Source: an uncultured Gammaproteobacteria bacterium (GTDB taxonomy: Bacteria; Patescibacteriota; Patescibacteriia; Magasanikbacterales; UBA922). Taken from it: a stretch of DNA of 64,000 nucleotides. The translations under genes were made by a program, and so were the position numbers. Shown here piece after piece: positions 3,769 through 52,495 of the stretch (the stretch's first letter is position 1; each line of letters starts with the position of its first letter). Location: assembly GCA_964345045.1 (NCBI GenBank), contig CAYFPM010000002.1, positions 36,286 through 100,285 on the forward strand, written 5' to 3'. Below the pieces are notes generated by a model, which was not told the origin of the DNA, made no database searches, and worked only from the letters and a program-made list of their open reading frames with translations.

Positions 3769-3948
3769 CAGTTGTAGTTACAAAACACTTAAACGTCATC
3801 CTGAATGGAGTGAGTCCAAAGGACGAACGCAAGGAAGGATCTATTCGGACTACCACTGGGATCCTTCTCCCGACTGTGGTCGGGAGAAGGATGACTACAA
3901 TCTACTACGTCACGCTGTAGCTTTAGCGAAGGCGGACTCACTACAACC
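3769..3948. repeat. composite palindromic GTCAT-family element (core 3795..3895, outer inverted repeat gttgtagt/actacaac)
   Basis: Termini gtcatcctga...ggatgac plus an internal 11-bp perfect hairpin cttctcccgac/gtcgggagaag; it shares the gtcatcctga start and gaaggatc/gatccttc core with the copies at 50718 and 56280; the 65-aa ORF 3761..3958 inside it is probably not coding. Confidence 0.6.
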
Positions 3949-3985: not shown

Positions 3986-5716
3986 ATGACCCTACTTTTA
4001 GTATCGTTTTTGGCTGGAGTGCTAACCGTGCTAGCCCCGTGTACCTTGCCACTCTTGCCAATTATTGTTGGCCGTACGGCCGACAGCCAATCCAAAAAAA
4101 GACCCCTTATCATTGCCGCCTCGCTCGCGATTGCAATTGTAGTCTTTACTCTACTTCTAAAAGCTTCGACTGCTTTTATAGATATCCCACAAAGTGTGTG
4201 GTCTTATGTGTCAGGTAGTATTATTGGCATCTTTGGACTTGTTTATTTGTTCCCAACTTCTTGGGAAAAATTGTCTACCAAATTTAATTGGTCTGGCTCC
4301 TCTGGAGAACTGCTACAAAAAAGTGCCGAGAAAAAAGGTTTGACTGGAGATATTCTGGTAGGGCTCTCTCTTGGTCCGGTTTTTTCTAGCTGTTCTCCAA
4401 CCTACTTTCTAATTTTGGCTACTGTTCTCCCACAAAACTATGCTACTGGGGTAGTTTACCTAATAGCCTATGCCATTGGTTTATCTCTAATGATGCTTTT
4501 GATTGGGTATCTTGGCCAAAAATTGGTAAGAAGGTTGCAAGGCTTTTCTGATCCTCATGGTAAATTCAAAAGAGGTTTAGGAATTTTGTTTCTCTTAGTT
4601 GGTCTTTTTATTGTAACTGGAGCAGACAAAAAAGTTCAGGCCTTTATTCTTGAAAAAGGTTACTTCGACATTACCAAAATTGAACAAAAATTGTTAACAG
4701 AGCCAATGGCCGAAGATATGGAAGAAGAAATCCCAGAAGTAAGCAGCGCAGCTACCACCAAACAATACCCTCTTTACAAAGAAATTGTTAACCCTTCTGG
4801 ATTTGTAAATAGCGAACCATTTGAACTAAAAGACTTGGTGGGAGAAAAAGTAATTTTGCTAGATATTCTTACCTACAGCTGTATCAACTGCCAACGTACT
4901 TTTCCCTACCTAAATACTTGGTATGAAAAATATAAAGATGCTGGGCTTACTATAGTTGGAATTCACACTCCAGAATTTGCTTTTGAGAAAAAAATAGAAA
5001 ACGTAGAAGACGCTGCCAAAAGATTTGGCCTAGAATTCCCACTGGTGCTAGACAACGATTATGCTACTTGGCGCGCTTATGGCAACCGCTATTGGCCAAG
5101 AAAATATCTAATTGATATTGATGGTAACATTGTTTACGACCACATTGGAGAAGGCGCATACGAAGAAACAGAAAAGAAAATCCAAGAGCTTTTGGAAGAG
5201 CGAATGGAGAGACTAAACCAAGCCATAGTTTTTGAAAAAAGTATCGAAAGACCTGCCGATGCCGAAGAAGTAGACTTTGGAGCACGCCGCAGTAGAGAAA
5301 CTTATTTTGGTTCACTAAGAAACAAAAATCCGGGCTTAACTACAGCTCAAGATGGCAACTTGGTAAGCTTTGCCAAGCCAGAAAATATTAACGCCAATCA
5401 ACTTTACCTAGTAGGAGATTGGGAAATGACTGGTGAATATGCCGAGGCTGTGTCGGAAGATGCTTCTATTATTTTTAACTACAGAGCCAAAAAAGTTTTT
5501 TTGGTACTAAGTAGCGAGGAAGCAGTTCAAGCCGAAGTTTTGGTAGATGGAAAAAAAATTGATTCTGACAAAGGTATTCATGTAGATGAAAATGGATTTG
5601 TAAATGTAGAAAACGAGCAGCTCTATAGACTAATTGAACACGACCAAATAGAAGAGCATACTCTTGAGTTAGAAGTAGAACCAGGCTTGCGCGCCTTTGC
5701 CTTTACCTTTGGTTAA
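3986..5716 (+). CDS. cytochrome c biogenesis CcdA/DsbD-like transmembrane domain fused to a TlpA/ResA-type thioredoxin domain
   Basis: Two membrane Cys motifs (LAPCTLP, SSCSPTYF) typical of the CcdA/DsbD beta domain; the C-terminal domain carries the CxxC motif YSCINCQ in a thioredoxin fold. Confidence 0.8.
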   Translation: MTLLLVSFLAGVLTVLAPCTLPLLPIIVGRTADSQSKKRPLIIAASLAIAIVVFTLLLKASTAFIDIPQSVWSYVSGSIIGIFGLVYLFPTSWEKLSTKFNWSGSSGELLQKSAEKKGLTGDILVGLSLGPVFSSCSPTYFLILATVLPQNYATGVVYLIAYAIGLSLMMLLIGYLGQKLVRRLQGFSDPHGKFKRGLGILFLLVGLFIVTGADKKVQAFILEKGYFDITKIEQKLLTEPMAEDMEEEIPEVSSAATTKQYPLYKEIVNPSGFVNSEPFELKDLVGEKVILLDILTYSCINCQRTFPYLNTWYEKYKDAGLTIVGIHTPEFAFEKKIENVEDAAKRFGLEFPLVLDNDYATWRAYGNRYWPRKYLIDIDGNIVYDHIGEGAYEETEKKIQELLEERMERLNQAIVFEKSIERPADAEEVDFGARRSRETYFGSLRNKNPGLTTAQDGNLVSFAKPENINANQLYLVGDWEMTGEYAEAVSEDASIIFNYRAKKVFLVLSSEEAVQAEVLVDGKKIDSDKGIHVDENGFVNVENEQLYRLIEHDQIEEHTLELEVEPGLRAFAFTFG

Positions 5717-11207: not shown

Positions 11208-11516
11208 TTATAGTTGGCAATAAGCTCTATACCCACCTTCCAAATTGGTTACATCTGTATATCCCAAACCAAGTAGAGTTTGGCAAGCTTGGCTAGATCT
11301 ACCACCACCGGCACAACAAGCCACAATCTTGGTGTCTAGATCTGGGATGGCTTCTTTTATTTTTAGTTCTAATACAGGAAGAGGAATATTGTTGGAATTT
11401 TCAATATGGCCTTCTTGCCACTCCTCTGAGCTTCTTACATCTATCAAGGTATGATCTACTCCCTCTTCGAGCATCTTTTTATATTCTTCGCAATTTATTC
11501 TTTTACATTGTGACAT
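11208..11516 (-). CDS. single-domain rhodanese (sulfurtransferase)
   Basis: Active-site loop CCAGGGRS (CX5R). Confidence 0.8.
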   Translation of the reverse strand: MSQCKRINCEEYKKMLEEGVDHTLIDVRSSEEWQEGHIENSNNIPLPVLELKIKEAIPDLDTKIVACCAGGGRSSQACQTLLGLGYTDVTNLEGGYRAYCQL

Positions 11517-11525
11517 ATATTTTAT

Positions 11526-12509
11526 TTATCTTATCCCAATTATTTTTCTTACATCTTTCATTGTTTTTTCAGCCACCTTGTTGGCTTTCTTCCCTCCCTT
11601 GTCCATTATTTTTTGCAAAGATTTTTTGTTGGCCAAAAGTTGGCTACGCTTCTTTCTAAAATCTGCAAAATAATTTGCTAAACTTTCCGAGACTTCTTTT
11701 TTCAAATCTCCATATCTTATATTTCCATTTTTTTCTGCTTTTACAAACTGCTTGTAAACTTTTTCTTCTCCAAATTCTCTTAGCAGCAAAAGTAAATTTT
11801 CTACACCAGGGGCAGACTCTCCAGAACCAGAAGCTGTTACTGCTTTTTTTATTTTCTTTTCTATAGTTTCTGGATCATCAGATAAATTTATGGCATGATT
11901 CTCCCCCTTGCTCTTGCTCATCTTCTTGTTTGGTTCTAGCAAACTCATTACTTTTGGAATTTTGGTTAAGAGTGGTTTGGTTTCTGGGAAATATTTTTTG
12001 TAGCGGTTGTTGAACCAACGAGCTACATCTCTGGTTAGTTCTACGTGCTGAACCTGATCCTGCCCAACTGGCACAAGCTCACCGTGATAGAGCAAAATAT
12101 CTGCTGCTTGTAATATTGGATAGGTAAACAAACCAGTATTTATATTTTTGGCTTGCTGAGTTGATTTGTCTTTGAACTGTGTCATGCGCTCCAACTCTGC
12201 TATAGGTGTCACAGTGTTAAAAATCCAAGTGAGCTCTGCAACTAAAGGAACTGAAGACTGGACAAACAAAGTAGATTTGTCTGGATCAACCCCTGCTGCA
12301 ATTATTTCTGCTGCTAGATTGTAAGTACTCTCATGTCTTTCCTCTGGCGTCATGCCCCCTGTCAAAGAATGATAATCTGCAATAAAAAAATAACAATCGT
12401 ACTTACCAGAGTTTTGGAGTTCTACCCAATTTTTAACTGCTCCCAAGTAATTACCTAGGTGAAGATTGCCTGTAGGCTGGACGCCGGAAAAAATTATTTG
12501 TTTTTTCAT
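11526..12509 (-). CDS. trpS: tryptophan--tRNA ligase
   Basis: HIGH-type motif TGNLHLGNY and KMSKS motif; C-terminal Lys-rich extension. Confidence 0.9.
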   Translation of the reverse strand: MKKQIIFSGVQPTGNLHLGNYLGAVKNWVELQNSGKYDCYFFIADYHSLTGGMTPEERHESTYNLAAEIIAAGVDPDKSTLFVQSSVPLVAELTWIFNTVTPIAELERMTQFKDKSTQQAKNINTGLFTYPILQAADILLYHGELVPVGQDQVQHVELTRDVARWFNNRYKKYFPETKPLLTKIPKVMSLLEPNKKMSKSKGENHAINLSDDPETIEKKIKKAVTASGSGESAPGVENLLLLLREFGEEKVYKQFVKAEKNGNIRYGDLKKEVSESLANYFADFRKKRSQLLANKKSLQKIMDKGGKKANKVAEKTMKDVRKIIGIR

Positions 12510-20276: not shown

Positions 20277-21338
20277 ATGAACGAAAAATACCAAAAAATT
20301 AAAGAACAATACCAAAAACTAGAACAGGAGCTAACAAACCCTGCTATTGTGGCTGATCAAAAAAAATTAAAAGAAACTTCACAAGAATACAATGAACTAA
20401 AACCAGCGATTGAAAAAATAACTGAATTAGAAAAAATCGTAGAGAGTATTGCTGACACCGAATTACTTTTGGCAGACGAAGAAGATGTGGCTACCAGAGA
20501 ATTGGCCGAAGCCGACTTGGCAGAACTAAGAGACAAAAAAATTAAATTGGACGAAGAAGTTGCTGTACTAACTAGACCAAAAGATCCACTAGACAAAAAA
20601 AATGTAATTGTAGAAATAAGAGCTGGAGCTGGTGGTGACGAAGCAGCTCTTTTTGCTGGAGAATTAATGCGCATGTACATGAAATACGGTGAGAAAAAAA
20701 ATTGGAAAACATCCCTTATTAGCGCCAATCAGATTGGGATTGGGGGTTACAAAGAAGTAATTTTTGCTATAGACGGTGTAAATGTGTTCAAAGATATGAA
20801 ATACGAAATGGGTGTGCACCGCGTACAAAGAATCCCAGAAACCGAAAAAGCCGGTCGTGTGCACACATCTACTTCTAGTGTAGCTATACTGCCAGAAATA
20901 GAAGAAACCGAAATTGAAATAAAACAAAACGATTTGAGAATTGATACCTACTGTGCTAGTGGGAATGGTGGCCAAAGTGTAAACACTACTTACAGTGCTG
21001 TGCGTATTACTCATATTCCAACTGGAATTGTCGCTCAGTGTCAAGACGAAAAATCCCAAACTCAAAACAAAATAAAAGCCATGTCGGTACTGCGCGCTAG
21101 AATCTACGAAGCCGAACAAGAAAAAAAAGAAGCAGAATTATCTGAACAAAGAAAAAGCCAAATTGGCACCGGCGACAGAAGTGAAAAAATCAGAACTTAC
21201 AATTTTCCACAAGACAGAATTACGGATCATAGAATAAAACAAAGCTGGAACAACATCCCCAATGTATTGGATGGAGATTTGGACGACGTTATCGAAGCTT
21301 TGCGTACAGCAGATTATGAGGCGAAGGATGGTGAGTAA
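20277..21338 (+). CDS. prfA: peptide chain release factor 1
   Basis: GGQ motif ([10 protein letters not shown]) and an RF1-type domain 2 (QRIPETE at the PxT position). Confidence 0.9.
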
Positions 21339-21387
21339 TGAGTAAAGAGTAACGGTAATGAATTAATTATATAATCAAAGGAGAAAT

Positions 21388-21753
21388 ATGAAGTTAGGAG
21401 AATTTGAGATTTATAAACTTTCTCGTGAAACATCAAAGTATGTGTGGGAGATATATGATCAATTTGATTGGAAGGTGAGAAAAACAATTGGTGATCAATG
21501 GCTAACTTCTACAGATTCTATTAGCGCCAACATAGCCGAGGGTTTTGGTAGATTCCATTTTTTAGACAAAAATAAATTTTATTATAATGCTAGAGGTTCC
21601 TTGTTCGAAGCCTTGGACTGGACAGACAAACTTACAGAAAGGAAAATTATATCTGAAAAACAATCAAAATATATAATTTCAAAACTTATTTATCTAAGGA
21701 TAAAATTGAATACTCATATAAGATCTAATAAAGAAATGAATTCTAAAATTTGA
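21388..21753 (+). CDS. four-helix-bundle protein (23S rRNA intervening-sequence protein family, TIGR02436-like)
   Basis: Motif SISANIAEGFGR; strong SD aaggag 7 nt upstream; flanked by an 11-bp inverted repeat. Confidence 0.75.
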   Translation: MKLGEFEIYKLSRETSKYVWEIYDQFDWKVRKTIGDQWLTSTDSISANIAEGFGRFHFLDKNKFYYNARGSLFEALDWTDKLTERKIISEKQSKYIISKLIYLRIKLNTHIRSNKEMNSKI

Positions 21754-21793
21754 GTAGACATTACTTATTACTCATTACACTTTACCAAAATTC

Positions 21794-23308: not shown

Positions 23309-24155
23309 TCAGCATATTGATCAGTTGGATGCCGAACTCTTGCTTGCTCATGTAATAAAAAAGACACGAGAGTTTGTTATTTCTCATCCAGAATTTTTAC
23401 CTTCAAGTTTTGAGATTTTAAAATTTAGAAGATTTGTAAAAAAAAGACTAAATAACGTACCTTTGGCTTATTTGATTGGTCACAAAGAATTCTTTGGTCT
23501 GGATTTTTTGGTAAACAAACATACTTTGATTCCCAGACCAGATACTGAAATTTTGGTAGAAAAAGTTATTTCAAATATCAAGGAACAAAAAGCAAAAAAA
23601 CAAAATATTCTATTAATAGATGTGGGGACTGGTTCGGGGAATATCCCTGTTTCTATAAAAAAAACAATGGAACAATGGAACAATAAAACAATTACAACTT
23701 ATGCTACAGATATCTCTGCCAAAGCCCTAAAAATAGCCAAAAAGAATGCAAAAAAACATGGAGTAAAAATAGATTTTTTAAAAGGTAATCTTTTGAATCC
23801 GATTTTAAAACAATGGAACAATATAAAAATAGAACAATATAAAAATCTTATAATCACTGCCAACCTACCTTATTTAACCGAAGCTCAATTTGCAAGCGAG
23901 CCTAGCATCCAAAAAGAGCCTAAAACAGCTTTGGTGGCAAACAAGCAAGGCTTGGCACTCTACGAAAAACTCCTAAACCAAATTAAAAAAATAACTAAGA
24001 ACCATGAACTAAGAACTCTAAACTGTTATCTGGAAATAGACCCTACTCAAACCCAAAAAATAAAAACTTTGATAAAACAATATTTACCAAACGCAAACAT
24101 CCAAATTGCCCAGGATTTGGCCGGACATGATAGGGTGGTAAAAATTGAAATTTAA
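23268..24155 (+). CDS. prmC: release factor glutamine methyltransferase (HemK/PrmC)
   Basis: Motifs LIPRPDTE, DVGTGSGNI and NLPY; the exact start is uncertain because it overlaps the upstream ORF. Confidence 0.8.
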   Translation: MLQQKIKTILQKTNQHIDQLDAELLLAHVIKKTREFVISHPEFLPSSFEILKFRRFVKKRLNNVPLAYLIGHKEFFGLDFLVNKHTLIPRPDTEILVEKVISNIKEQKAKKQNILLIDVGTGSGNIPVSIKKTMEQWNNKTITTYATDISAKALKIAKKNAKKHGVKIDFLKGNLLNPILKQWNNIKIEQYKNLIITANLPYLTEAQFASEPSIQKEPKTALVANKQGLALYEKLLNQIKKITKNHELRTLNCYLEIDPTQTQKIKTLIKQYLPNANIQIAQDLAGHDRVVKIEI

Positions 24156-31119: not shown

Positions 31120-32016
31120 TCAGCGTCCAATAAATTCCTCTTCATCAAACACATCAAAAGTTGGACTAACTACCACACTACTTACATTTATAGTGCCACC
31201 AAAATAACGCAAATCAATATTTCTTTTTTCACCTGCCAAAAATTGATCCACCACCAAATTTATAACTCCCATTCTTTGGTTGCCACTAAATAACTCTACC
31301 AAAAAAGTCGGTTCCCAATAGCTGTAGGCCGAATCATTGTAAAAATCAAACTGCACACTAGGCACTAGTGGCCCCTCGTTCAAACCGGGTGCACTAAAGT
31401 TAAAATTCTCTACCGAAAATATAATTCTTTCGTTCATAAAACCAGCTACATCGGCAATCTCATGAGCATCGACTCTCTTCCAAGTCACGTCTTCTATTTC
31501 GAACCTGGCGTTGGTAGGAAAAGAACCCAAATCTCTACCCAAAATTGCTACCGGACGTTTTGATGCCGGCATAATTATGGTTTCTACAGTTTCGGTACGA
31601 CTATTTCCAAACACAAAATAATAACGCAAAGTAGCCACCCAATCTTCGTTTATATTGTTTATATCAGCCACAAAGTCATACTTACTGGCCGAACTTTGGT
31701 ATACGCTTATTCTTTCTACTTGCAAATCTTTGGCTCCGTATAATTCGTGCAATGGAACAAAGTTGGTAACTTGTTCTAGTTGTGAACGATGCAATTGCAA
31801 GTCTTGATTGTAACCCACAAACAAATAATGCCCCCACATAAACAAACTAAAACCAACCGTAACTATACACCAAACAACCAAAATTCCTTTACCCATATTG
31901 GCCAATTGCAATTTGTGTTTTAGATACCATTCCCCCATTCTAAGTTTGCGATTGCTAAATTCACCGGTCGGATCTTTGTATGCTTTTAATTTGTCTGGTG
32001 GCTTCTGAAAAATCAT
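31120..32016 (-). CDS. hypothetical membrane-anchored protein
   Basis: 298 aa with one TM helix near the N-terminus. Confidence 0.5.
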   Translation of the reverse strand: MIFQKPPDKLKAYKDPTGEFSNRKLRMGEWYLKHKLQLANMGKGILVVWCIVTVGFSLFMWGHYLFVGYNQDLQLHRSQLEQVTNFVPLHELYGAKDLQVERISVYQSSASKYDFVADINNINEDWVATLRYYFVFGNSRTETVETIIMPASKRPVAILGRDLGSFPTNARFEIEDVTWKRVDAHEIADVAGFMNERIIFSVENFNFSAPGLNEGPLVPSVQFDFYNDSAYSYWEPTFLVELFSGNQRMGVINLVVDQFLAGEKRNIDLRYFGGTINVSSVVVSPTFDVFDEEEFIGR

Positions 32017-32032
32017 AACTTTGTAAGCAAGG

Positions 32033-32108
32033 TAAGTAATAAGCAGATTAAGCAGAGTAAAAATTATTTATGTTACTTACTCTGTCTATTCTGCTTAATC
32101 TGCTTATC
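32033..32108. repeat. AAGCAGATTA(G/A)GCAG palindromic repeat, copy 1
   Basis: taataagcagattaagcagagtaa...ttactctg..ctgcttaatctgcttat inverted arms. Confidence 0.65.
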
Positions 32109-32281
32109 TAATGCTACAATTATACACCAAAAATAAGCCTAATTACACCCCTTGTTTTATATATAGAAAAATGATAAAATCTAGAAGAAATAAAAAGCAT
32201 GAAATCATTAATCTCGACTCCAGTCAGGACTTAGCCTCTCAGCTTAGAGCAAAAAACAAATTGTAAATTACATCTACATAA

Positions 32282-39570: not shown

Positions 39571-42500
39571 TTATTCATTCAAGAGAATATTCAATTCCTT
39601 CCTAGTATCTTTGTCGAGCGTCTTGGTTACTGGCAAGTCATTATCTTTTTGAAATCTTTCCAAAGCCTCTTCTAAAGTAGTCCCAAAGAAAGGAGTCGTT
39701 TCATAAAGGTAAAAATATTCCATTTCGTGCAAAACCTTTTTCAACTCACTAACATCCTGGTCTTCGTCTTGAAAATTAAGATCTTTTTTAAACGGTCCAA
39801 TATCAGCTTCTGTATAGTCCTCTCCTCCCGGATATTTGTCGAACAAAGTTTGATCCAAATAAATCAGATCATCATACTCATAACCAAGCTTGGAAAAAGT
39901 ATAATCTGTGTTGAATTTCCTCCAGCTAGAATCTTCGAATATATAAGAGTAGCTAGACTCTGGGAATCTTACAATTTCTCCTTCTCTTGGTACATAATTC
40001 TTACCAGGCAAAACTGGGCCAGCAGGATCTTCTGGAATTTGATCCAAGATCTCTTGTGCCTCTATTACCACATCGCCCAAAGAAGAAAAATGAGTAAAGA
40101 ATAAATCTTCATTTTCTACTAATCTTTTGGTACAATTTTCTGTTATTAAATATATTTGCCCAGGCAAGGCAGCGGCATATGGTTTGTCTGCTTCTAGTGG
40201 GCAAACTTCGTTATTTGTATTACCACCATCCAAATCTCTAGTTTCAAAAAACGGGAAAATTGATTTTATTCCAACGATTATAGAATCAAATATAGAGTCT
40301 TCTTCGTACAAAGAAGAAGTTCTGGCTGTGTTATCGCTTTTTCTCAATATCTCACTCAAATCTTCTATGTTCTCAATTTCTTGCTCTGTTAATTCTATAG
40401 ATACTTCTTCATCATAATAAATCCCACTAAAAAGTTTGAATCTAACATAAATTACTTTGTCACCAATCCCTTCCGACAAAACCCAAGGTAGCGAATCTTG
40501 ATAAGGGAAAACAAAGGCATTTTGAAAAGTAATATCTTCTGAAATCATAATTTCTTCAGCATTGTCTATAGCAAAACTCAACAAGACTTTTCTAGAATTA
40601 GTTTTTTCTTCGCCCCCATTTATGGTAACAGCCGACATAGCTACTCCGTTTTCTCCTATAGAGTACTGCACAGAAGAACCTCTCGATACTGCTCCCCCGC
40701 TAACCGAAACCGAATCAGATTCTGCACTAACCACAGCATCTTCTTCTACCGGTGGATAATAAACAATAGCAACGTCTTGGAAAACAGGACTAGATGTAGT
40801 GATCCCGTCTGTGGTTAAAGCTGCTTGATATTGAATATATCTATGTCCATCTGTTACACAACCATTGGCAGAGATATCGTCTCCACTAGCTACAGCAGTA
40901 CAAGAAGCAAAATCTGTAGCACCGCTCATATCACTACTATTATCTGTTCTAACTTTTACTGTGGTGCTAGCAGAGTTGCCAGTAGCTGTATAAGTAAGTG
41001 TCCCCCAAGTTTCGGCCTCTGTAGTATCGAATATTGCAGAAGTAAGAGTCGCCGAACTATTTACTCGAGATTCTACACTACCCACAGAATAAAAATTAGC
41101 TGGATCAGATTGGTTGTTGTATTCCGTTTCAATATACGTAGCGCTTAGAGTAGACGGAGCTAGACGGATTTCATCCAAAGTTCCATCAAATTGACGAACA
41201 GTATCATTGGGATGAGCACCAATTCTAATATCACAACCCGCATCCCCAATAAGCGAGCCAGCAGCAGTATCTCTTTTTAGATAACTACTTACGGCGACAC
41301 CATCTATATAAAATTTAGAATCTGTAGCTCCCAAACTATTGGCATAGGTAAATACAACATGGTGCCAAGATGTTTTGGGGGTAAAATCTGTATCGGAATT
41401 TACAGCTTCGGCATCCGAAGTAGTGTATTCTCTACCCCACATAAAAACCGGATTAGCTGTAGCTGGTTGGCTATCCCAGGCCAAGTAAACATCGCCTGTA
41501 TCGTCGTATTGAATCTCCCAACCACCGCTATTACAACTTCCCAAATATTTGGTAATAAGCCTACCACCATATTGATCAGATCCAGGAGTAGCGTCTCCTT
41601 TTATCCAAAAACTTACCGACATATCGGTCAAGTCGTCTATAGTAGAATCAGTAGCTACATCCAAAACCCTACCGGCGCTAGATGGGTTCTCCACAAATTG
41701 GATAGCGTTACCCAATTGTCCGCTAACAGAATGACTGCTAGAAAAATTAGCATTGGTTGCATTACCATGGTTACTATTGGCCGAATCACAAACTTCGAAA
41801 CCAGCACCACTACAACTACCGTCGGTGCTAATACTAGGGTCTTCTTCGAAGTGCCAAACAGCAGCATAAGCAGAACTCCATGTACTAGCATTATTTGATA
41901 CGTTTGCACTAGCATTACCATAATAAACATAAATATCTGTATCGGCAGCACTACTAACACTTGGCACATTGACCCAAGCTTGCATGGTGCTAGCGGTAGT
42001 GGATACAGATACAACTTCTCTATTTAGGACAGTTGTTCCATCCGAACTGGTGAAAACCAAATCCGTACCATTAGTATTTACATTAGAAAAAAAGTGAGAG
42101 TCAAAATTATCTTCGGTAACCAAAACTGGAAAATTGGATTGAGTAGAAGAAACTTGGGTAGAGTCTATAGTTATTTTTCTTCTATAGAGCCAAGCCGTGT
42201 CGTACCAACCAGTAGTGGTGGCAGCTTCGAATTGACCAGTAGTGGTGGTATAAGCTGTAGTGGCAGACTGGTATTGGTTGCTAGTATTTGTACCGACTCC
42301 ACTAGACCAATCGGTCTGGGTCCAGGTAGAACCGCTGGCATAAGCCAAAGAAACATTGCCCACCAAACCATAGCTAACAGCCAAGGTAAATGCCAAATAA
42401 GAAAAAGCTGTCAACGAAGTGAGCGCAATAGAGGTTTTGCGTCTTTTTCTGTATAGTTGATAAGAAAAACCTTCTTTATTAAATAGAGTTGGATCTATCT

Positions 42501-42675
42501 TGTAAGTTTTTTTGAAATAAAGAGGAAAAGAGACCAAATTAAGAACTAATTCATGAAAAGACATTTTCAAAAATTTTGGAATTCTAAAAACATGATCTTT
42601 GTGAGAAAGTTCTTTTTTTGAAGCAACTACATTGACAGAGTATTTGTCGATTAAACCTAACCATTTTTTCTTCAT
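39571..42675 (-). CDS. large membrane-anchored surface protein with DUF2341 + LamG (concanavalin A-like) + C-terminal peptidoglycan-binding domain, paralog 1
   Basis: N-terminal TM, then WYDTAWLYRRKITID...NFPVLV (DUF2341-like), then a LamG-like region (AVWHFEE...SFWIK...HHVVFTY...LDEIRL), then a PG_binding_1-like C-terminus; the start is set at M42 (MKKKWLGL) by alignment with the paralog; the ORF-track start at 42798 overlaps the next gene. Confidence 0.75.
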   Translation of the reverse strand: MKKKWLGLIDKYSVNVVASKKELSHKDHVFRIPKFLKMSFHELVLNLVSFPLYFKKTYKIDPTLFNKEGFSYQLYRKRRKTSIALTSLTAFSYLAFTLAVSYGLVGNVSLAYASGSTWTQTDWSSGVGTNTSNQYQSATTAYTTTTGQFEAATTTGWYDTAWLYRRKITIDSTQVSSTQSNFPVLVTEDNFDSHFFSNVNTNGTDLVFTSSDGTTVLNREVVSVSTTASTMQAWVNVPSVSSAADTDIYVYYGNASANVSNNASTWSSAYAAVWHFEEDPSISTDGSCSGAGFEVCDSANSNHGNATNANFSSSHSVSGQLGNAIQFVENPSSAGRVLDVATDSTIDDLTDMSVSFWIKGDATPGSDQYGGRLITKYLGSCNSGGWEIQYDDTGDVYLAWDSQPATANPVFMWGREYTTSDAEAVNSDTDFTPKTSWHHVVFTYANSLGATDSKFYIDGVAVSSYLKRDTAAGSLIGDAGCDIRIGAHPNDTVRQFDGTLDEIRLAPSTLSATYIETEYNNQSDPANFYSVGSVESRVNSSATLTSAIFDTTEAETWGTLTYTATGNSASTTVKVRTDNSSDMSGATDFASCTAVASGDDISANGCVTDGHRYIQYQAALTTDGITTSSPVFQDVAIVYYPPVEEDAVVSAESDSVSVSGGAVSRGSSVQYSIGENGVAMSAVTINGGEEKTNSRKVLLSFAIDNAEEIMISEDITFQNAFVFPYQDSLPWVLSEGIGDKVIYVRFKLFSGIYYDEEVSIELTEQEIENIEDLSEILRKSDNTARTSSLYEEDSIFDSIIVGIKSIFPFFETRDLDGGNTNNEVCPLEADKPYAAALPGQIYLITENCTKRLVENEDLFFTHFSSLGDVVIEAQEILDQIPEDPAGPVLPGKNYVPREGEIVRFPESSYSYIFEDSSWRKFNTDYTFSKLGYEYDDLIYLDQTLFDKYPGGEDYTEADIGPFKKDLNFQDEDQDVSELKKVLHEMEYFYLYETTPFFGTTLEEALERFQKDNDLPVTKTLDKDTRKELNILLNE

Positions 42676-42745
42676 ATGGTTTTTGGCTATTATAATATGA
42701 TTTCTAAATTTATTATACATAATTGATAAAAACGTAGAAATATAA

Positions 42746-43267
42746 TTATTTCTCCATTTTTTTGACAGTGATTTTTGCCAGTTCAGCCTTCCAGCCAATT
42801 AGATTGGCCAACAATTGAACAAAGGATGATACACCTGCTATGGCCAAAACCAACCAAAAATACCAGGTAATTGGTAATAGATAATATAGAGCCACGGTAA
42901 AAACAGATATCCATACCCCTACACACCACGGACAACCCAAGAGATCGGCGAAAAGTCTTCTTAGTCCTTTTTTAGGTTTTGATCTATATGTATAAACTAT
43001 TCCTTTTTCTTTTTTTTCTGATTTTACCAAAAACATATCCCTAATAAACTGGGACACTTGATCGTATACCAATAACCTAGTTAATCTAAAAGCAGCAAAA
43101 ACCAAAATAGTAAACTCCCAGATTGTTATATCGTTAAGATCTTTTATTGAAAAATTTGTATAAAAAGATAGCAAATAAGTAAAAAATATTACTAATGCAA
43201 AAAATATTATTGTGAGAAGAAAGCTTAAAAAAACTCCACTTCCCTTCTCCTTTTTTGTAACCTCCAT
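42746..43267 (-). CDS. DUF1360 family membrane protein
   Basis: 4 TM helices with an LLGCPWCVGVW motif. Confidence 0.65.
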   Translation of the reverse strand: MEVTKKEKGSGVFLSFLLTIIFFALVIFFTYLLSFYTNFSIKDLNDITIWEFTILVFAAFRLTRLLVYDQVSQFIRDMFLVKSEKKEKGIVYTYRSKPKKGLRRLFADLLGCPWCVGVWISVFTVALYYLLPITWYFWLVLAIAGVSSFVQLLANLIGWKAELAKITVKKMEK

Positions 43268-44133: not shown

Positions 44134-47085
44134 TTAGCTATTTAAAATGGTATTCAGCAGTGCTCTGGTAGCTCTATCCAAATTTCCTGTTTCTTGCAAT
44201 TTGTTTTTTCTTTGGAATCTTTTTAGAGCATCTTCTAGATTGGTACTAAAAAATGGGGTGGTTTCATATTGTTGAAAATGACCTTGTTTGTGAAGTAAAG
44301 CTTTTAGGTCGACTACATCTTGGTGAGAATCTTGAAATTTTAAATTCTTTAGATAAGGTCCTATGTCCGCCTCGGTGTAAGTTTCGCCAACGACATATTT
44401 ACCAAATACGCTCTTGTCTATCAACAAAATACTATTGTAACTATGTCCAAGCTGACGAAGGGTAAACTGAGAATTAAAACTTCTCCATTTGTTGTCTTCC
44501 AATATATATATATTAGAATCATCCGAAACTTTTGCCAAAACTCCTTCTTCTAATTCTATTTCTGGGTTAAGTGTCATCGGTCCGGCTGTATCCAAGTTGA
44601 TTTGATCTAACTCTGCTTGGGTAACAAATTGGACAGCTCCCAAAGAAAGATTATAACTATCAAAAGAATATTTATCTAAAAACGGTCTCTTGGTACATTC
44701 TGGCGTGATGAAAAATAGAGTGGCATCTACATAAGAGCGATGAACTTCTCCAATAGTCGCAGGGCAAACAAAATCATCTGCATAGGCTCCTCCTCCATTT
44801 GAATTTGCACCTGTAGAAGTATCCCCCTCATCTCCATTTGGGATCACATTCATAGCGCCTTCTTCAAATACCAAGGTCTTTTCTACATCATAATAAAAAC
44901 CATTATATAATTTGAATCTTACATACAAATTCTTTTCACCATAACCTTCGGAAAGTGTCCATTCCATTTCTTCTGCAAAAGGAATAAACTTGGCATTGGC
45001 AAAAGTAATATCTTCGGAAATGGCTACAGATTCTACATCTCGTAAACCATACTTCAACAAGACTTTATTTTCATCACTTTCTATTTTTTCAATTGTGACA
45101 GCTTCTAATGGAATTCCATCTTTGCCTACACTTCTGGAAACAGAAGTACTAGCCCCAGCTCCCCCAGCTACACTACCAGTATTGGAAGTGGTACTAGAAG
45201 CCGAAGGCACGGTATAAGCAATAGAAATATCCTGAAAAACCGGAGAAGAGGTAGTGATACTATCTGTAGTAAGAGTAACTTCGTATTGTACATATCTATC
45301 CCCATCGGTTACACAACCATTGCCAGAGATATCTGTCCCCGAAGTAATAGTGGTACAAGAACCAAAAGCTGTTGCTCCACTCATATCACTACTACTATCT
45401 GTTCTTACTTTTACAGTAGTACTGGCAGAGTTCCCAGTAGCAGTGTAGGTCAAATTACCCCAACTTTGGGCATTGGTGGTATCAAAAATGGCAGAAGTTA
45501 ATACTGCTGTGCTGGTAACAGCGTATTCCAAAGCAGAGACAGAATAAAAAGTCGAAGGACTATTTTGATTGTTGTATTCGGTTTCTACATACTGTGGAGT
45601 AACTACACTGGTAGCAAGACGAAGTTCGTCCAAACCACCATGAAAAGGTCTATCGTCCCCACCACGAGCACCAATATACAAATCACAAGCAGCATCACTC
45701 ACATGTGCACCAGCACCAGCCACATTTGATGGGTAATAAGCAGCTTCCACACCATTTATAAAAAATCTACCACTGGTACCTGTGTAATTATCATCCCAAG
45801 TAAATACCACATGTTGCCAAGCATCTTCTGTAACAGTTAGGTTATCGGTAATAAAGAACGAATCAGTAGTTGCATTATCTTTGTCCCACACCAATACCTG
45901 ATCGTACCCACTTGGCTGACTGCTACCATCCCAAACATTTCCGTTGTTATCATACAAAAGTTCCCAACCTTCTAAACAAACTTTCTCAAAAATAGTATGG
46001 TTATTGTCCGAAGAAAAGGCACTATCCGGGTTCATCCAAAAAGAAACCGAATAATCACCTAGATCGTCTATGCTACTACCACTAAAGGCTTTTAATCTTT
46101 TGCTTGTACCAAATCTATAACCAGTACCAAAAGGAGAACTAGTCGCATAAGAGGCATCGAAACCAGTAGATGTAGCATGGTTGGCATTTCCAGCCGAATC
46201 ACAAGTAGAATATATTCCTCCACCACAGGCACCATCGGTAGTAGCAGTCGGGTCTTCGTCCAAATGCCAAACTGCAGCATAGGTGGAACTCCAAACTGTA
46301 GTATCGTCAGTTTGAGCGTCTCCAGTATCACTATTACCAAAATACATATAAATATCTGTATCGGCGTCGTCTGGCAAAGAACTAATTCTTACCCAAGCCT
46401 CGAATTGAGAAGTGCTAGAGTTGAAAGCTACAATTTCTCTGGGTAAGAGAGTTCCACTACTATCTGTAAATAGAATGTCTGCTCCGGTATTTTGGATAAC
46501 ATTGTTAAAAAAGTCGGCTCCAAGATTATCTTCTGTAATAAGCACTGGAAAATTGGACAGTGTAGAAGAAACTTGATTTTGGTCTATAGTAATTTTTTGT
46601 CTGTAGCCCCAAGCTGTGTTATACCAACCTGTAGTAGTGGCCGCTTCGAATTGTCCGGTAGTGGTAGTATAAGCAAAACTAACAGATTCGTACTGATTGC
46701 CAGTATCTATCCCTACTCCACCAGACCAATCGGTCTGGGTCCAAGAAGTACTAGTAGCCAAGGCTGTAGACAAATTGGAAAATAAACTAAAACCTAAACT
46801 GATTGCCAGGTAAGAAAATACTAATAACGAGCTAACCCCGAATGAAAGTCGACGTTTTCTATAATGATGAAACGAAAAACCTTCATTATTAAAAATCTTA
46901 TGGTCTAATCTATGGGTTCGCCTTATATAAAGAGGGACAGACAAAAAACCGATCGCAATTTCGTGTACCAAAATATTTAGTAAGTGTAAAAAAGCCAAAA
47001 TAGGGTGTTTATCCTTTAACCCCTTTTTGACCAAATCCACTCTACTAGATAAAAAGTGGAGTAATTTAAGCCATTTATTATTCAT
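44134..47085 (-). CDS. large DUF2341 + LamG + peptidoglycan-binding membrane protein, paralog 2
   Basis: 983 aa, collinear with the protein at 39571..42675 (for example GQFEAATTTGWYNTAWGYRQKITID, SATAFGSCT, a C-terminal PG-binding-like domain). Confidence 0.75.
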   Translation of the reverse strand: MNNKWLKLLHFLSSRVDLVKKGLKDKHPILAFLHLLNILVHEIAIGFLSVPLYIRRTHRLDHKIFNNEGFSFHHYRKRRLSFGVSSLLVFSYLAISLGFSLFSNLSTALATSTSWTQTDWSGGVGIDTGNQYESVSFAYTTTTGQFEAATTTGWYNTAWGYRQKITIDQNQVSSTLSNFPVLITEDNLGADFFNNVIQNTGADILFTDSSGTLLPREIVAFNSSTSQFEAWVRISSLPDDADTDIYMYFGNSDTGDAQTDDTTVWSSTYAAVWHLDEDPTATTDGACGGGIYSTCDSAGNANHATSTGFDASYATSSPFGTGYRFGTSKRLKAFSGSSIDDLGDYSVSFWMNPDSAFSSDNNHTIFEKVCLEGWELLYDNNGNVWDGSSQPSGYDQVLVWDKDNATTDSFFITDNLTVTEDAWQHVVFTWDDNYTGTSGRFFINGVEAAYYPSNVAGAGAHVSDAACDLYIGARGGDDRPFHGGLDELRLATSVVTPQYVETEYNNQNSPSTFYSVSALEYAVTSTAVLTSAIFDTTNAQSWGNLTYTATGNSASTTVKVRTDSSSDMSGATAFGSCTTITSGTDISGNGCVTDGDRYVQYEVTLTTDSITTSSPVFQDISIAYTVPSASSTTSNTGSVAGGAGASTSVSRSVGKDGIPLEAVTIEKIESDENKVLLKYGLRDVESVAISEDITFANAKFIPFAEEMEWTLSEGYGEKNLYVRFKLYNGFYYDVEKTLVFEEGAMNVIPNGDEGDTSTGANSNGGGAYADDFVCPATIGEVHRSYVDATLFFITPECTKRPFLDKYSFDSYNLSLGAVQFVTQAELDQINLDTAGPMTLNPEIELEEGVLAKVSDDSNIYILEDNKWRSFNSQFTLRQLGHSYNSILLIDKSVFGKYVVGETYTEADIGPYLKNLKFQDSHQDVVDLKALLHKQGHFQQYETTPFFSTNLEDALKRFQRKNKLQETGNLDRATRALLNTILNS

Positions 47086-47660: not shown

Positions 47661-47695
47661 ATAGATAACCAGTAAATTGTGAGTGTAGCACAACC

Positions 47696-47777
47696 CGTCA
47701 TTCCCAGCTTGACTGGGAATCCAGATAATGAGCAAGTCCTTGCACATAACTGGATTCCCGTTTGCACGGGAATGACG
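47696..47777. repeat. GTCAT-family four-segment palindromic element (cgtcattccc variant)
   Basis: cgtcattccca/tgggaatccag ... ctggattccc/gggaatgacg. Confidence 0.65.
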
Positions 47778-47823
47778 ATTTAAGGAACCATGCACTACAA
47801 ACCAAAACTATGAACTATTGGCT

Positions 47824-48381
47824 ATGAACAATAAACTAATAATTGGAATCGTAGGACAAATGGCTGCGGGCAAAGGAACCGCCGCTAATTATTTGAAAGA
47901 AAAGTATGGTGCCAGCACTTATACTTTTTCAACTATGCTAGGTGATGTGCTAGATAGATTTCATCTAGAAAGAAACCGAGACAATTTTATAAAAATATCC
48001 GAGCAAATGCGCTCTACCTTTGGTGAAGACATAATGGCCAAAACCATGGCCAATGACGTAAAAAAAGATAGTAATAATCTAATTGTAGTAGAGGGAGTAA
48101 GGAGAGACGCTGACATAGAATATCTAAGCCAAATGGAGGGATTTGTGCTCGTAGAAATTTTTGCTAATATGGAAAAAAGATTTGAAAGAACCAAAAAGCG
48201 TGGTGAAAAAATAGATGATAATGACAAAACTTTTGAAGAGTTCGAAGCAGATCACCAAAGATCTACCGAACTTTCTACAGTAGAAGTTGCCAAACAAGCC
48301 ACAATTAGAATAGATAATAATGGCACACTTGAAGAACTTTATACACAGCTAGACAGTTTAATTAAGCAAAATAAGGATTAA
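47824..48381 (+). CDS. P-loop nucleoside monophosphate kinase-like protein (adenylate/dNMP-kinase fold), specificity unknown
   Basis: P-loop GQMAAGKGT; lies inside the dNTP-metabolism gene run; the ORF-track start at 47818 is TTG, and the ATG at 47824 is more likely. Confidence 0.6.
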   Translation: MNNKLIIGIVGQMAAGKGTAANYLKEKYGASTYTFSTMLGDVLDRFHLERNRDNFIKISEQMRSTFGEDIMAKTMANDVKKDSNNLIVVEGVRRDADIEYLSQMEGFVLVEIFANMEKRFERTKKRGEKIDDNDKTFEEFEADHQRSTELSTVEVAKQATIRIDNNGTLEELYTQLDSLIKQNKD

Positions 48382-48426
48382 GCAGATTAGGCAGGTTAAG
48401 AATTTTACTTACTCTGCTTAATCCTG
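48375..48426. repeat. AAGCAGATTAGGCAG palindromic repeat, copy 2
   Basis: ggattaagcagattaggcag...tctgcttaatcc; overlaps the kinase stop codon and lies 10 nt before dut. Confidence 0.65.
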
Positions 48427-48861: not shown

Positions 48862-48868
48862 CATTTTA

Positions 48869-48914
48869 GTTCATCGTTCTTGGTTCTTAGTTCTGAGAAC
48901 CAAGAACGATGAAC
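48869..48914 (+). promoter_or_regulatory. 18-bp perfect inverted repeat hairpin between dut and thyA
   Basis: gttcatcgttcttggttc - ttagttctga - gaaccaagaacgatgaac. Confidence 0.6.
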
Positions 48915-48929
48915 CATGAACTACTAAAT

Positions 48930-49802: not shown

Positions 49803-49861
49803 ATGGTTCATAGCCAATCGCCAATAGTTAATAGTTTATAATTTATATTTAAGGGGGAATT

Positions 49862-50215
49862 ATGAAAACATATAAAGATCTTGATGTGTGGAAAAAGTCC
49901 ATAGAACTAGTTATAGAACTGTATAGGATTACAAAACTATTGCCCATTGAAGAAAAGTTTGGGCTGGTATCACAAATGCGGCGTTGTACTGTATCGATCC
50001 CCTCAAACATTGCAGAAGGTTATGCTAGAAAAAATAGAAAAGAAAACGCCCAATTTGTAAATATTGCATTCGGTTCTGGTACAGAATTGGAAACCCAAAT
50101 AATTATTGTAAAAAAGTTAAATCTAATAAAACAAGAAGAATTTACAAAAGCAGATCAATTATTGGACAGTGTATTACGAATGCTTTATAGGTATCGTGAA
50201 TCACTTTACCAATAA
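49862..50215 (+). CDS. four-helix-bundle protein (23S rRNA intervening-sequence protein family)
   Basis: Motifs DLDVWKKS...SIPSNIAEGYAR; strong SD aggggg; flanked by roughly 25-30 bp inverted repeats. Confidence 0.8.
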   Translation: MKTYKDLDVWKKSIELVIELYRITKLLPIEEKFGLVSQMRRCTVSIPSNIAEGYARKNRKENAQFVNIAFGSGTELETQIIIVKKLNLIKQEEFTKADQLLDSVLRMLYRYRESLYQ

Positions 50216-50239
50216 ACGATTGGCTATGAACTATTGGCT

Positions 50240-50719
50240 ATGCACCAAATATCTCTAGTTGCCGCAATTTCCAAAAACAACTGTATTGGCAAAGACAATA
50301 CCCTGCCTTGGGATATCCCGGCAGATATGAAAAGGGTAAAAGAATTAACCATTGGTAGAAATGTAATCATGGGACGCAAAACTTGGGAATCAATCCCAGA
50401 AAAATTCCGTCCATTACCAAAAAGAAAAAATATTATTATTACCCGAAACAATAATTTGGAAGTGCCAGAAGGAGTAGAAGTTTATAATAGTATCGAAGAA
50501 GCCATTGAAAGGCATAAAGGTGAAGAGATTGTTGGTTTTGGAGGTCAAAGAATTTTTGAAGAAATGATGCCAATAGCCGATGTGCTCTACATTACCCACG
50601 TCGATCAAGAAGTAGACGAGTGCCAAGCTTATTTCCCAGAGATAGATCAAAAAATTTGGCAAGAAACAGAAAGAGAAGATTTCGATGGCTATTCGTTTGT
50701 AACTTATAAAAAAACCTAG
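50240..50719 (+). CDS. folA: dihydrofolate reductase
   Basis: Region ISLVAAISKNNCIGKDNTLPW...GRKTWESIP; the ORF-track start at 50234 is TTG, and the ATG at 50240 is more likely. Confidence 0.9.
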   Translation: MHQISLVAAISKNNCIGKDNTLPWDIPADMKRVKELTIGRNVIMGRKTWESIPEKFRPLPKRKNIIITRNNNLEVPEGVEVYNSIEEAIERHKGEEIVGFGGQRIFEEMMPIADVLYITHVDQEVDECQAYFPEIDQKIWQETEREDFDGYSFVTYKKT

Positions 50720-50798
50720 TCATCCTGAGCGAAACGCAGTGGAGCCGAAGGATCCCAGTGGGAGTCCGAAGAGATCCTTCGCTCAGCTCAGGATGACT
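50718..50798. repeat. GTCAT-family palindromic element with 16-bp terminal inverted repeats
   Basis: agtcatcctgagcgaa ... ttcgctcagctcaggatgact with an inner gaaggatc/gatccttc hairpin; overlaps the folA stop codon. Confidence 0.7.
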
Positions 50799-52349: not shown

Positions 52350-52378
52350 AAAGCCCCGGCCAAAAGCCGGGTCTTTTC
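52350..52378 (+). terminator. intrinsic terminator
   Basis: gccccggcc-aaaa-gccgggtcttttc. Confidence 0.6.
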
Positions 52379-52417
52379 AATGTACCGACGACGTGATAAT
52401 CTAACCTGTGAATAAAC

Positions 52418-52480
52418 AATAAGCAGATTAGGCAGAATAAGCAGTTTTTGCTTAATTCTTACTCTGCCTAATCTGCTTAC
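52418..52480. repeat. AAGCAGATTAGGCAG palindromic repeat, copy 3
   Basis: aagcagattaggcag pairs perfectly (15 bp) with ctgcctaatctgctt; 16 nt upstream of gatB. Confidence 0.7.
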
Positions 52481-52495
52481 TACTTACAAAAAGCT

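Follow-up and report, generated by a model that had tools for sequence, protein, structure and literature searches.

What are the three palindromes that share a TAAGCAG core and lie directly in front of gene starts in a 64,000-nt stretch of DNA (contig CAYFPM010000002.1, positions 36,286 to 100,285 of the forward strand; hereafter the window) from a member of the Patescibacteria deposited as an uncultured Gammaproteobacteria bacterium (assembly GCA_964345045.1)? An earlier note, made from the sequence alone, proposed a palindromic operator, a REP (repetitive extragenic palindromic)-like stability or terminator element, or a MITE (miniature inverted-repeat transposable element), and took the closeness to start codons as a hint of regulation. 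The mobile, MITE- or REP-like option is the one supported by the analysis reported here, while the operator and the terminator are not. The three palindromes are probably MITE-like members, lacking an open reading frame (ORF), of a family of selfish elements which resemble the intervening sequences (IVSs) of rRNA genes and are co-transcribed with their host genes.

Re-reading of the sequence located all three copies at the coordinates claimed earlier, with full extents (52-85 nt) that reach slightly beyond them. The copies and the signals beside them are as follows:
32024..32108, no strand: copy 1 of the TAAGCAG-unit palindrome, with exact units at 32040-32106
48363..48426, no strand: copy 2, with exact units at 48379-48420 and a partly degenerate right arm
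52413..52486, no strand: copy 3, with exact units at 52420-52479 and a perfect stem of 17 bp
32119..32124, minus strand: perfect TATAAT hexamer, 12 nt outside copy 1
52393..52402, plus strand: GTGATAATCT, the putative extended -10 of gatB, with TGCTAAAAT or TGCTACAAT at the counterpart position in relatives
52355..52371, plus strand: canonical intrinsic terminator of the upstream gene (CCCGGCCAAAAGCCGGG followed by TCTTTTC), separate from copy 3

The arms of the palindromes are composed of tandem 9-nt units of the form TA(A/G)GCAGA(T/G/A) (TAAGCAGAT, TAGGCAGAG or TAAGCAGAA), with the opposite arm formed by the inverted run, and the outer units of the window arms are degenerate (e.g. TAAGCAAGG and TAAGTAA). 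For example, the left arm of copy 1 reads TAAGCAAGG-TAAGTAA-TAAGCAGAT-TAAGCAGAG and its right arm CTCTGTCTA-TTCTGCTTA-ATCTGCTTA, with a loop consisting of an A/T-rich stretch and an ATG. The perfect stems reported previously are real, but the maximum of 15 bp given for them was slightly too short, the stem of copy 1 measuring 16-19 bp and that of copy 3 17 bp. The window has a G+C content of 38 %, and seven matches to AAGCAGATTARGCAG with at most two mismatches could be identified within it, every one of them inside the three copies; shuffled sequences contained a mean of 0.40 matches, and 0/100 shuffles reached seven. Outside the three elements the TAAGCAG 7-mer occurs at approximately the frequency expected by chance, on which grounds a reading as a DNA uptake sequence was dropped. 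When folded as RNA, both strands of the window copies are predicted to form structures of -21 to -40 kcal/mol (z-scores -4.8 to -7.0).

All three copies sit between protein-coding genes, and the Rfam matches in the window are limited to one tRNA. The distances to the neighbouring start codons given in the earlier note hold to within 1-2 nt (16, 9 and 15 nt to the ATGs). Copy 1 is flanked by an unannotated minus-strand gene coding for 298 aa (31120-32016), from whose ATG (32016) it is separated by 16 nt, and by gyrB, 283 nt upstream of which it lies. It stands between the ATG of the former gene and the TATAAT box, and, if this hexamer is the -10 of that gene, copy 1 would form the 5' end of its mRNA. 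Copy 2 fills the 54-nt spacer between a dNMP-kinase-like gene and dut, ending 9 nt before the dut ATG, and the kinase stop codon (TAA, 48379-48381) is the TAA of its first exact unit. Copy 3 is located in the leader of gatB, downstream of a DUF7847 gene, between the -10-like box and the ATG at 52496, and ends 15 nt before the latter; GTGATAATCT, as the candidate -10 of gatB, would place it within the transcribed leader. A two-hexamer promoter scan called neither of the -10-like boxes beside copies 1 and 3. A promoter inside the arm itself is unsupported: the right arm contains a -10-like TAATCT, but neither a TG nor a -35 stands at the proper distance from it, and no promoter was called there by the scans.

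Using an exact search for the 21-nt core against one genome per species, ninety-seven matching stretches were obtained. Approximately forty of these, which come from unrelated bacteria and are simple (GATTAAGCA)n microsatellites or coding repeats, were set aside. True unit-palindromes were found in Candidatus Magasanikbacteria, other Patescibacteria and several metagenome-assembled genomes (MAGs) labelled 'uncultured Gammaproteobacteria', and across several Patescibacteria MAGs the TAAGCAG palindromes are multi-copy yet patchy. The element-bearing loci (439 kb) include thirty-six palindromes with a forward and an inverted array (F...R) and thirty half or mixed arrays. The units are spaced by exactly 9 nt in 111/134 cases and have the composition TA(A 170 / G 68)GCAG + A + (T 117 / G 63 / A 41), with one to six exact units per arm and often unequal numbers in the two arms. 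The palindromes are intergenic and mostly occupy the entire spacer. The distance between one arm and the start codon is 2-31 nt, that between the other arm and the stop codon is -3 to about 20 nt, and in at least nine cases the neighbouring gene terminates at the unit's own TAA. The tabulation of positions suggested in the earlier note thus bears out a closeness to start codons but not a preference for them. This closeness can be ascribed to the tiny size of the intergenic spacers, since stop codons are abutted equally tightly, and it no longer serves as a hint of regulation. The genes beside elements elsewhere are functionally unrelated, and include dnaK/dnaJ, gatA, murJ, an aminoacyl-tRNA synthetase gene and purine biosynthesis genes. 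No match to the element was found in viral contigs, leaving a viral vector unsupported, while exact-protein look-ups for close strains with presence/absence polymorphism retrieved the same sampled population only.

Two further patterns at the gene junctions were considered and rejected. That F arrays follow stop codons and R arrays precede start codons was discarded as evidence, as this is automatic for any palindrome and for half-remnants. Similarly, the units provide a TAA or TAG every 9 nt and could have served as in-frame back-up stops, but the frame is inconsistent except in the cases where the stop codon is part of a unit.

A local profile search of all fetched DNA was used to survey the flanks of genes of the PF05635/TIGR02436 family, which encode a basic four-helix-bundle protein of approximately 120 aa (S23p, '23S rRNA intervening-sequence protein', Avd-like; hereafter IVP). 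These genes generally have inverted arrays of short tandem units on either side, with a unit that varies by element:
L055 and L084: IVP elements with TAAGCAG units
L111: IVP element with CATTAAAA units
L106: IVP element with GACTACAG units
L153: IVP element with AAAGTTCAT units
L092 (Bacteroidota genome): IVP element with GTGCTCAG units
Window 21388-21753: IVP element with GAGTAAT units

The complementarity of the flanks exceeds the 95th percentile of 188 control genes in 11/16 IVP genes. A clade of TAAGCAG-armed IVP genes could be distinguished at seven independent Patescibacteria loci (L055, L084, L184, L185, L187, L189 and L191), with the five members added to the L055 clade showing 53-68 % identity. 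In 7/7 of these a forward TAAGCAG array lies 6-20 nt upstream of the ATG, while in 6/7 the inverted array starts at the IVP stop codon (...GCTTAA followed directly by TCTGC...). The exception is L187, in which the R array comes after an extra ORF of 120 aa (4385-4747, between the IVP gene and the right arm) for which no Pfam or NCBIfam match was found. ORF-less palindromes occur in the IVP-bearing loci too (L184 246-312 and L185 6225-6284). The window copies are collinear with the IVP-bearing elements, aligning end to end with versions from which the IVP gene is deleted, through F units, A/T-rich leader and R units.

The clade of the IVP gene tracks the family of the arms. All members of the clade that includes the thyA-folA IVP gene of the window (6/6; window, L105, L193, L194, L196 and L198) have GTTCATAG/CCAATAG arms and never TAAGCAG arms, and the presence of GTTCATAG arms in the five further members was the outcome predicted from this tracking. 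Furthermore, the IVP gene is co-oriented with the gene just upstream in 13/15 cases (p = 0.007), with both exceptions being genes without arrays. The elements are thus placed in sense orientation within host transcription units, inside operons, apparently without a promoter of their own. The IVP proteins are small and basic (pI 9.1-9.5) and are related to the solved structures 2GSC and 2RLD. Only PF05635 and the L187 ORF were found between the ends of the elements, with no transposase domain between or near the arrays in the loci examined, and the genes annotated in approximately 56 kb of the window include no regulator, transposase or reverse transcriptase.

The gatB-leader and kinase-dut sites occupied in the window are empty in relatives. 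Comparison of eighty gatB loci of relatives (1,023,953 bp; GatB identity 44-74 %) revealed only two marginal unit clusters, neither of which is near gatB. The gatB upstream region of these relatives comprises a terminator (GGGTCTTTTCAAT), an extended -10-like box (TGnTAAAAT; TGCTAAAAT or TGCTACAAT) and the ATG, with the palindrome absent, while in the window the relatives' terminator and GTGATAATCT are kept and the palindrome is placed between the box and the ATG. The syntenic locus L193 retains the gene order dCMP deaminase, kinase, dut, thyA, IVP, folA, tmk, DUF7847 and gatB, and shares 85 % (thyA) and 76 % (gatB) identity with the window. Its kinase-dut spacer measures 12 nt, its gatB leader extends for 9 nt after TGCTACAAT, and no TAAGCAG unit clusters were found in its 11.4 kb. 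Two of the three window sites thus have empty orthologous counterparts. The gatC-gatA junction is found in three states, being empty in L127 (8-nt spacer), occupied by an ORF-less TAAGCAG palindrome in L036 and by an IVP-bearing copy in L191 (gatC-IVP-gatA), while an IVP-bearing copy also occupies the murB-hpf junction in L189 (murB-IVP-hpf). The conservation check proposed in the earlier note accordingly finds the motif absent from orthologous leaders of relatives, the very result that the note had named as speaking against its reading. In some relatives TGCTACAAT stands only 9 nt before the gatB ATG (L193 7420-7447; L116), so that the gatB mRNAs of these relatives would be nearly leaderless; a Shine-Dalgarno sequence is present at few of the starts examined.

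On the reading of the palindromes as ORF-less IVS-like elements, a full-length member comprises a forward array of 9-nt TARGCAGAN units in its 5' part, a short A/T-rich leader and an IVP gene of approximately 120 codons in its middle, and an inverted array of the same units starting at the IVP stop codon, while the window copies would represent the two arrays joined by a remnant of the leader. The elements would insert at gene junctions inside host transcription units, both in mRNA leaders and in intercistronic spacers. Transcription would pass through the copies, copy 2 being intercistronic and copies 1 and 3 lying between a -10-like box and an ATG. In the RNA the two arrays would pair into a helix of 17-30 bp, for which a cut by RNase III may be expected by analogy with the rRNA IVSs, and where the helix lies just past the transcription start it would provide a 5'-terminal hairpin, in an organism which encodes RNase J. 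Either way, host transcripts would be trimmed or split rather than regulated, and the elements themselves appear to be selfish.

This anatomy can be compared with that of the 23S rRNA IVS of Coxiella burnetii, described as a selfish element of 428-444 nt with an S23p ORF between terminal inverted repeats, the 28-bp stem of which is cut mid-stem by RNase III and the arm of which holds two to three tandem GACAGAT heptamers, their number differing between strains (PMC4990558). The S23p structure of Xanthomonas has been described as a homopentamer (PMC4990558), and both IVP ORFs and short ORF-less insertions have been reported in the rRNA genes of the Candidate Phyla Radiation (CPR, equivalent to the Patescibacteria) (PMC11270868). 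The elements described here share with the rRNA IVSs a stem of terminal inverted repeats (28 bp in Coxiella and 17-30 bp here), variable-number tandem repeats in the arm (GACAGAT heptamers and 9-nt TARGCAGAN units, respectively) and a cargo which, when present, is a basic PF05635 four-helix-bundle protein of approximately 120 aa, with the window copies themselves being without an ORF. Both occur with and without an ORF, ride on host transcription, apparently without a promoter of their own, and are sporadically distributed; rRNA IVSs with an S23p ORF are found in Coxiella burnetii, Leptospira, Brucella and Xanthomonas, and short ORF-less ones in Salmonella and others. They differ in that the elements here are situated in mRNA leaders and intercistronic spacers, not in helix 25 or 45 of the 23S rRNA, and in that each genome has many copies and several unit families, with copies abutting or overlapping stop and start codons. 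RNase III excision is known for the rRNA IVSs, and is expected here by analogy. While rRNA intervening sequences and S23p proteins have been known since about 1990, with their origin, spread and protein function still open (PMC4990558), a limited literature search found no account of IVS-type elements outside rRNA, which is not proof of novelty. On the best reading, what is new here is the IVS-like anatomy outside rRNA, between ordinary genes of tiny-genome Patescibacteria, the IVSs and S23p themselves being known.

Several points weigh against the reading as IVS-like elements. The window itself yielded no IVP gene with TAAGCAG arms, and derivation could have run either way, through deletion of the IVP gene from a full-length element or through capture of an IVP gene by a palindrome. 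The loop 'remnants' of the window copies (ATG in copy 1 and GCTTAA in copy 3) are short and unit-like. A target-site duplication could not be established: the ends read TA...TA, but this TA lies within the inverted repeat, and the empty sites are too diverged to align. No transposase was seen in the 64 kb and the fragments examined, and we know of no established mechanism of mobility even for the rRNA IVSs. Cleavage by RNase III is proposed by analogy only, and no RNase III signature was found in the fetched loci, which make up a small part of each genome. The promoters beside copies 1 and 3 are recognised solely from -10-like boxes, and the genes of the foreign loci are our own crude ORF calls, which renders the start-codon distances there approximate.

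The palindromes could instead be RNA elements that are useful to the host, namely REP-like intercistronic or 5'-terminal stem-loops which stabilise or punctuate mRNAs. Such stem-loops might protect against RNase J, act as RNase III processing sites, or constitute a post-transcriptional regulon in which an IVP ring binds the tandem 9-nt units. The stems are indeed very stable, the copies lie inside transcription units, either between cistrons or just past putative -10 boxes, the window includes a gene for RNase J, and half-arrays (F units only) persist beside stop codons. The tracking of the unit family by the IVP clade is likewise what specific binding predicts, although co-descent predicts the same. 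However, relatives express the same genes without copies at the corresponding junctions, the flanked genes (dnaJ, gatA, gatB, dut, hpf, murJ and aminoacyl-tRNA synthetase) are unrelated in function, and the numbers of units in the arms are asymmetric and variable. Furthermore, in a strand-bias test for selection at the RNA level, based on the asymmetry between G:U and A:C, no bias towards stability of the sense-strand hairpin could be observed among the twenty-five copies of known orientation (13 vs 12; p = 0.81). The lack of excess stability in the sense-strand fold argues against selection for mRNA structure and for a passively carried palindrome, and a benefit to the host is considered unlikely.

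A conventional MITE, mobilised in trans by a transposase such as a TA-targeting enzyme of the IS630/Tc1-like kind (with ends of TA-AGCAG...CTGCT-TA) and carrying the IVP gene as occasional cargo, would account for the terminal inverted repeats, small size and multiple copies, as well as for the existence of filled and empty sites. Insertion at TA or TAA would also fit both the termini, which begin and end with TA, and the at least nine copies which lend their own first TAA to the neighbouring gene as its stop codon. This explanation is nevertheless improbable, as no transposase was found between or near the arrays at any locus and only the IVP gene is ever bracketed by the arms (7/7 loci of the clade, once with the extra small ORF). 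In addition, the arms are arrays of variable-number tandem micro-units rather than a fixed terminal inverted repeat (TIR), and no target-site duplication was demonstrated.

More generally, the palindromes resemble MITEs, the Correia elements of Neisseria, the Rickettsia palindromic elements (RPEs) and REP sequences with their mosaic assemblies (BIMEs) in being short, non-coding, multi-copy intergenic inverted repeats which are co-transcribed and for which filled and empty sites exist. RPEs can overlap gene ends, and REP and Correia elements may affect mRNA stability. Unlike in these groups, the full-length partner here carries an Avd-like four-helix-bundle protein, with no transposase of the DDE or the Y1/RAYT type recognisable in it, each arm consists of a variable number of 9-nt micro-units without a fixed TIR, and no target-site duplication is shown. 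REP sequences and BIMEs are based on imperfect palindromes of 20-40 nt with a conserved GTAG-type head and accompany a RAYT gene, while the copies described here measure 52-85 nt, are built from units and have no conserved tetranucleotide head; no Y1 transposase (RAYT) was found in the annotated regions of the window. The Avd proteins of diversity-generating retroelements (DGRs; NF033474, PF22296 bAvd) are small and basic like the IVP, which matches the DGR Avd model weakly (E 3e-6 to 4e-14), below the cut-off. The IVP genes stand alone between inverted unit arrays, however, and no reverse transcriptase, template repeat or variable repeat was found beside them.

A palindromic operator, or operator array, for a DNA-binding regulator of the downstream genes is very improbable. 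The palindromes are close to start codons and beside -10-like boxes, and their repeated units could seat several protomers, but the motif is absent from orthologous leaders and copy 2 is intercistronic and overlaps a stop codon. Neither the cognate helix-turn-helix (HTH) regulator which the earlier note suggested seeking nearby nor any other regulator is encoded near any of the copies. The downstream genes are also functionally unrelated, the 9-bp period of the units is off the helical repeat, and the same arrays flank a mobile-looking gene.

An intrinsic (bidirectional) terminator can virtually be dismissed, and so can a guide-RNA array like those of TIGR or CRISPR systems: there are hairpins between genes, and Patescibacteria do host TIGR-Tas systems with stem-loop arrays, but the stems here are A/T-rich rather than G+C-rich and are followed by no T-run, with the scan calling only the separate canonical terminator upstream of copy 3, and the stems are conserved, the loops 5-20 nt long and the copies dispersed, with no Nop-domain gene. 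Identity with a TIGR-Tas array was rejected on architecture, for although both have palindromic stems in CPR genomes and short modules (approximately 9 nt), TIGR arrays are tandem, with variable stems, dual spacers of 8-12 nt, box C/D motifs and an adjacent Nop-domain Tas gene, none of which is found here.

If the palindromes are ORF-less IVS-like elements, a wider proposition can be put forward tentatively, as a possibility rather than the expected outcome. The PF05635/TIGR02436 genes with inverted arrays of 7-9 nt tandem units on both sides, each family having its own unit, and the abundant ORF-less palindromes may form a widespread and unrecognised class of selfish element that colonises gene junctions inside transcription units, of which the classical 23S IVS would be only a special case that happened to be recognised earliest. 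Each array would be recognised by its own Avd-like ring protein, and spread could proceed via RNase III-excised RNA or a folded single strand, with no need for a transposase. PF05635/TIGR02436 is a very large family of 'hypothetical' genes, and should elements of this type routinely sit in mRNA leaders and between cistrons, IVSs would no longer be a curiosity of rRNA. The IVP protein would also gain a concrete candidate ligand in its own unit array, and many natural pairs of filled and empty sites would become available for study. For the annotation of Patescibacteria, such elements would explain conspicuous palindromes at start codons, which might otherwise be annotated wrongly as operators, terminators or guide-RNA arrays, and they flag sites at which long hairpins probably cap host mRNAs or lead to their cleavage.

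Members of other unit families are present in the window:
49804..50247, plus strand: full-length sister-family element, with an IVP gene at 49862-50215 (PF05635/TIGR02436) wedged between thyA and folA
48868..48924, no strand: ORF-less GTTCATAG-family palindrome in the dut-thyA spacer
47808-47830 and 23995-24017: GTTCATAG-family half-arrays
21333..21783, plus strand: third element, with an IVP-family gene at 21388-21753 (PF05635, E 1.5e-19)

The arms of the sister element are inverted GTTCATAG/CCAATAG arrays at 49804-49839 and 50212-50247, and pair in both the minimum free energy and the centroid folds of the full element (49804-50247). The thyA-IVP-folA insertion and the dut-thyA palindrome are common to the window and the syntenic locus L193. 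The third element has arms consisting of inverted GAGTAAT-type arrays (21333-21362 and about 21758-21783) and is inserted after prfA, which it parts from a PMT_2 glycosyltransferase gene and prmC.

Other repeats were observed at equivalent junctions in the fetched loci. These include AGTAACT units upstream of gatB (L105, about 2100-2280), CTGATAA/TATCAGC 7-mers upstream of the kinase gene (L193 2840-2915), GAAGGCTCA 9-mers at murB-hpf (L041 2712-2840) and a G+C-rich hairpin at gatC-gatA (L131 8265-8419). The more distant relative L153 has an IVP-bearing element with AAAGTTCAT units immediately downstream of gatB (11500-11942), and in L120 gatC and gatA are separated by 3.4 kb, which includes an array-less IVP gene. 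Furthermore, a sequence of approximately 25 nt (GTCGGGATACGCCGGGTAAACTCCA), for which no Rfam match was found, directly precedes the forward unit array on two contigs of one MAG (L009 1890-1919 and L034 1404-1433).

Pure (GATTAAGCA)n 9-mer microsatellites with up to twelve or more copies occur in unrelated bacteria, including Gallionellaceae, Rhodoferax, Rheinheimera and Anaerolineae (L004, L011, L043, L051, L062, L070, L095 and others), and a few, such as those of L053 and L042, form inverted arrays. Patescibacteria-type elements and IVP genes are present in more than ten MAGs that bear the label 'uncultured Gammaproteobacteria bacterium' (L008, L016, L033, L035, L037, L045, L088 and others). 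The DnaK encoded beside one element scores 386 bits against Escherichia coli DnaK, and 367-373 bits against those of Geobacillus and another bacterium and against mitochondrial Hsp70. Judging from these scores, this DnaK is no nearer to that of E. coli than to that of Geobacillus, and the 'Gammaproteobacteria' label of the element-bearing MAGs looks wrong.

The window also contains repeats of other kinds. A G+C-richer palindrome of 34 nt (GAAGGATC...GATCCTTC) occurs at 3834-3867 and, between folA and tmk, at 50747-50780. These two copies are 94 % complementary to each other and make up a further small family of dispersed hairpins. A long G+C-rich inverted repeat (CCCGTCATTCCCAGCTTGACTGGGAATCCAG ... 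CTGGATTCCCGTTTGCACGGGAATGACG; 47690-47780), unlike the unit-based families, lies upstream of the kinase gene. Two large paralogous genes (39571-42798 and 44134-47085), which are approximately 76 % identical over several segments and encode DUF2341, Laminin_G_3 and PG_binding_1 domains, flank the gene for ribosomal protein L1, which is located about 6.7 kb away from that for L11 (36165-36662).

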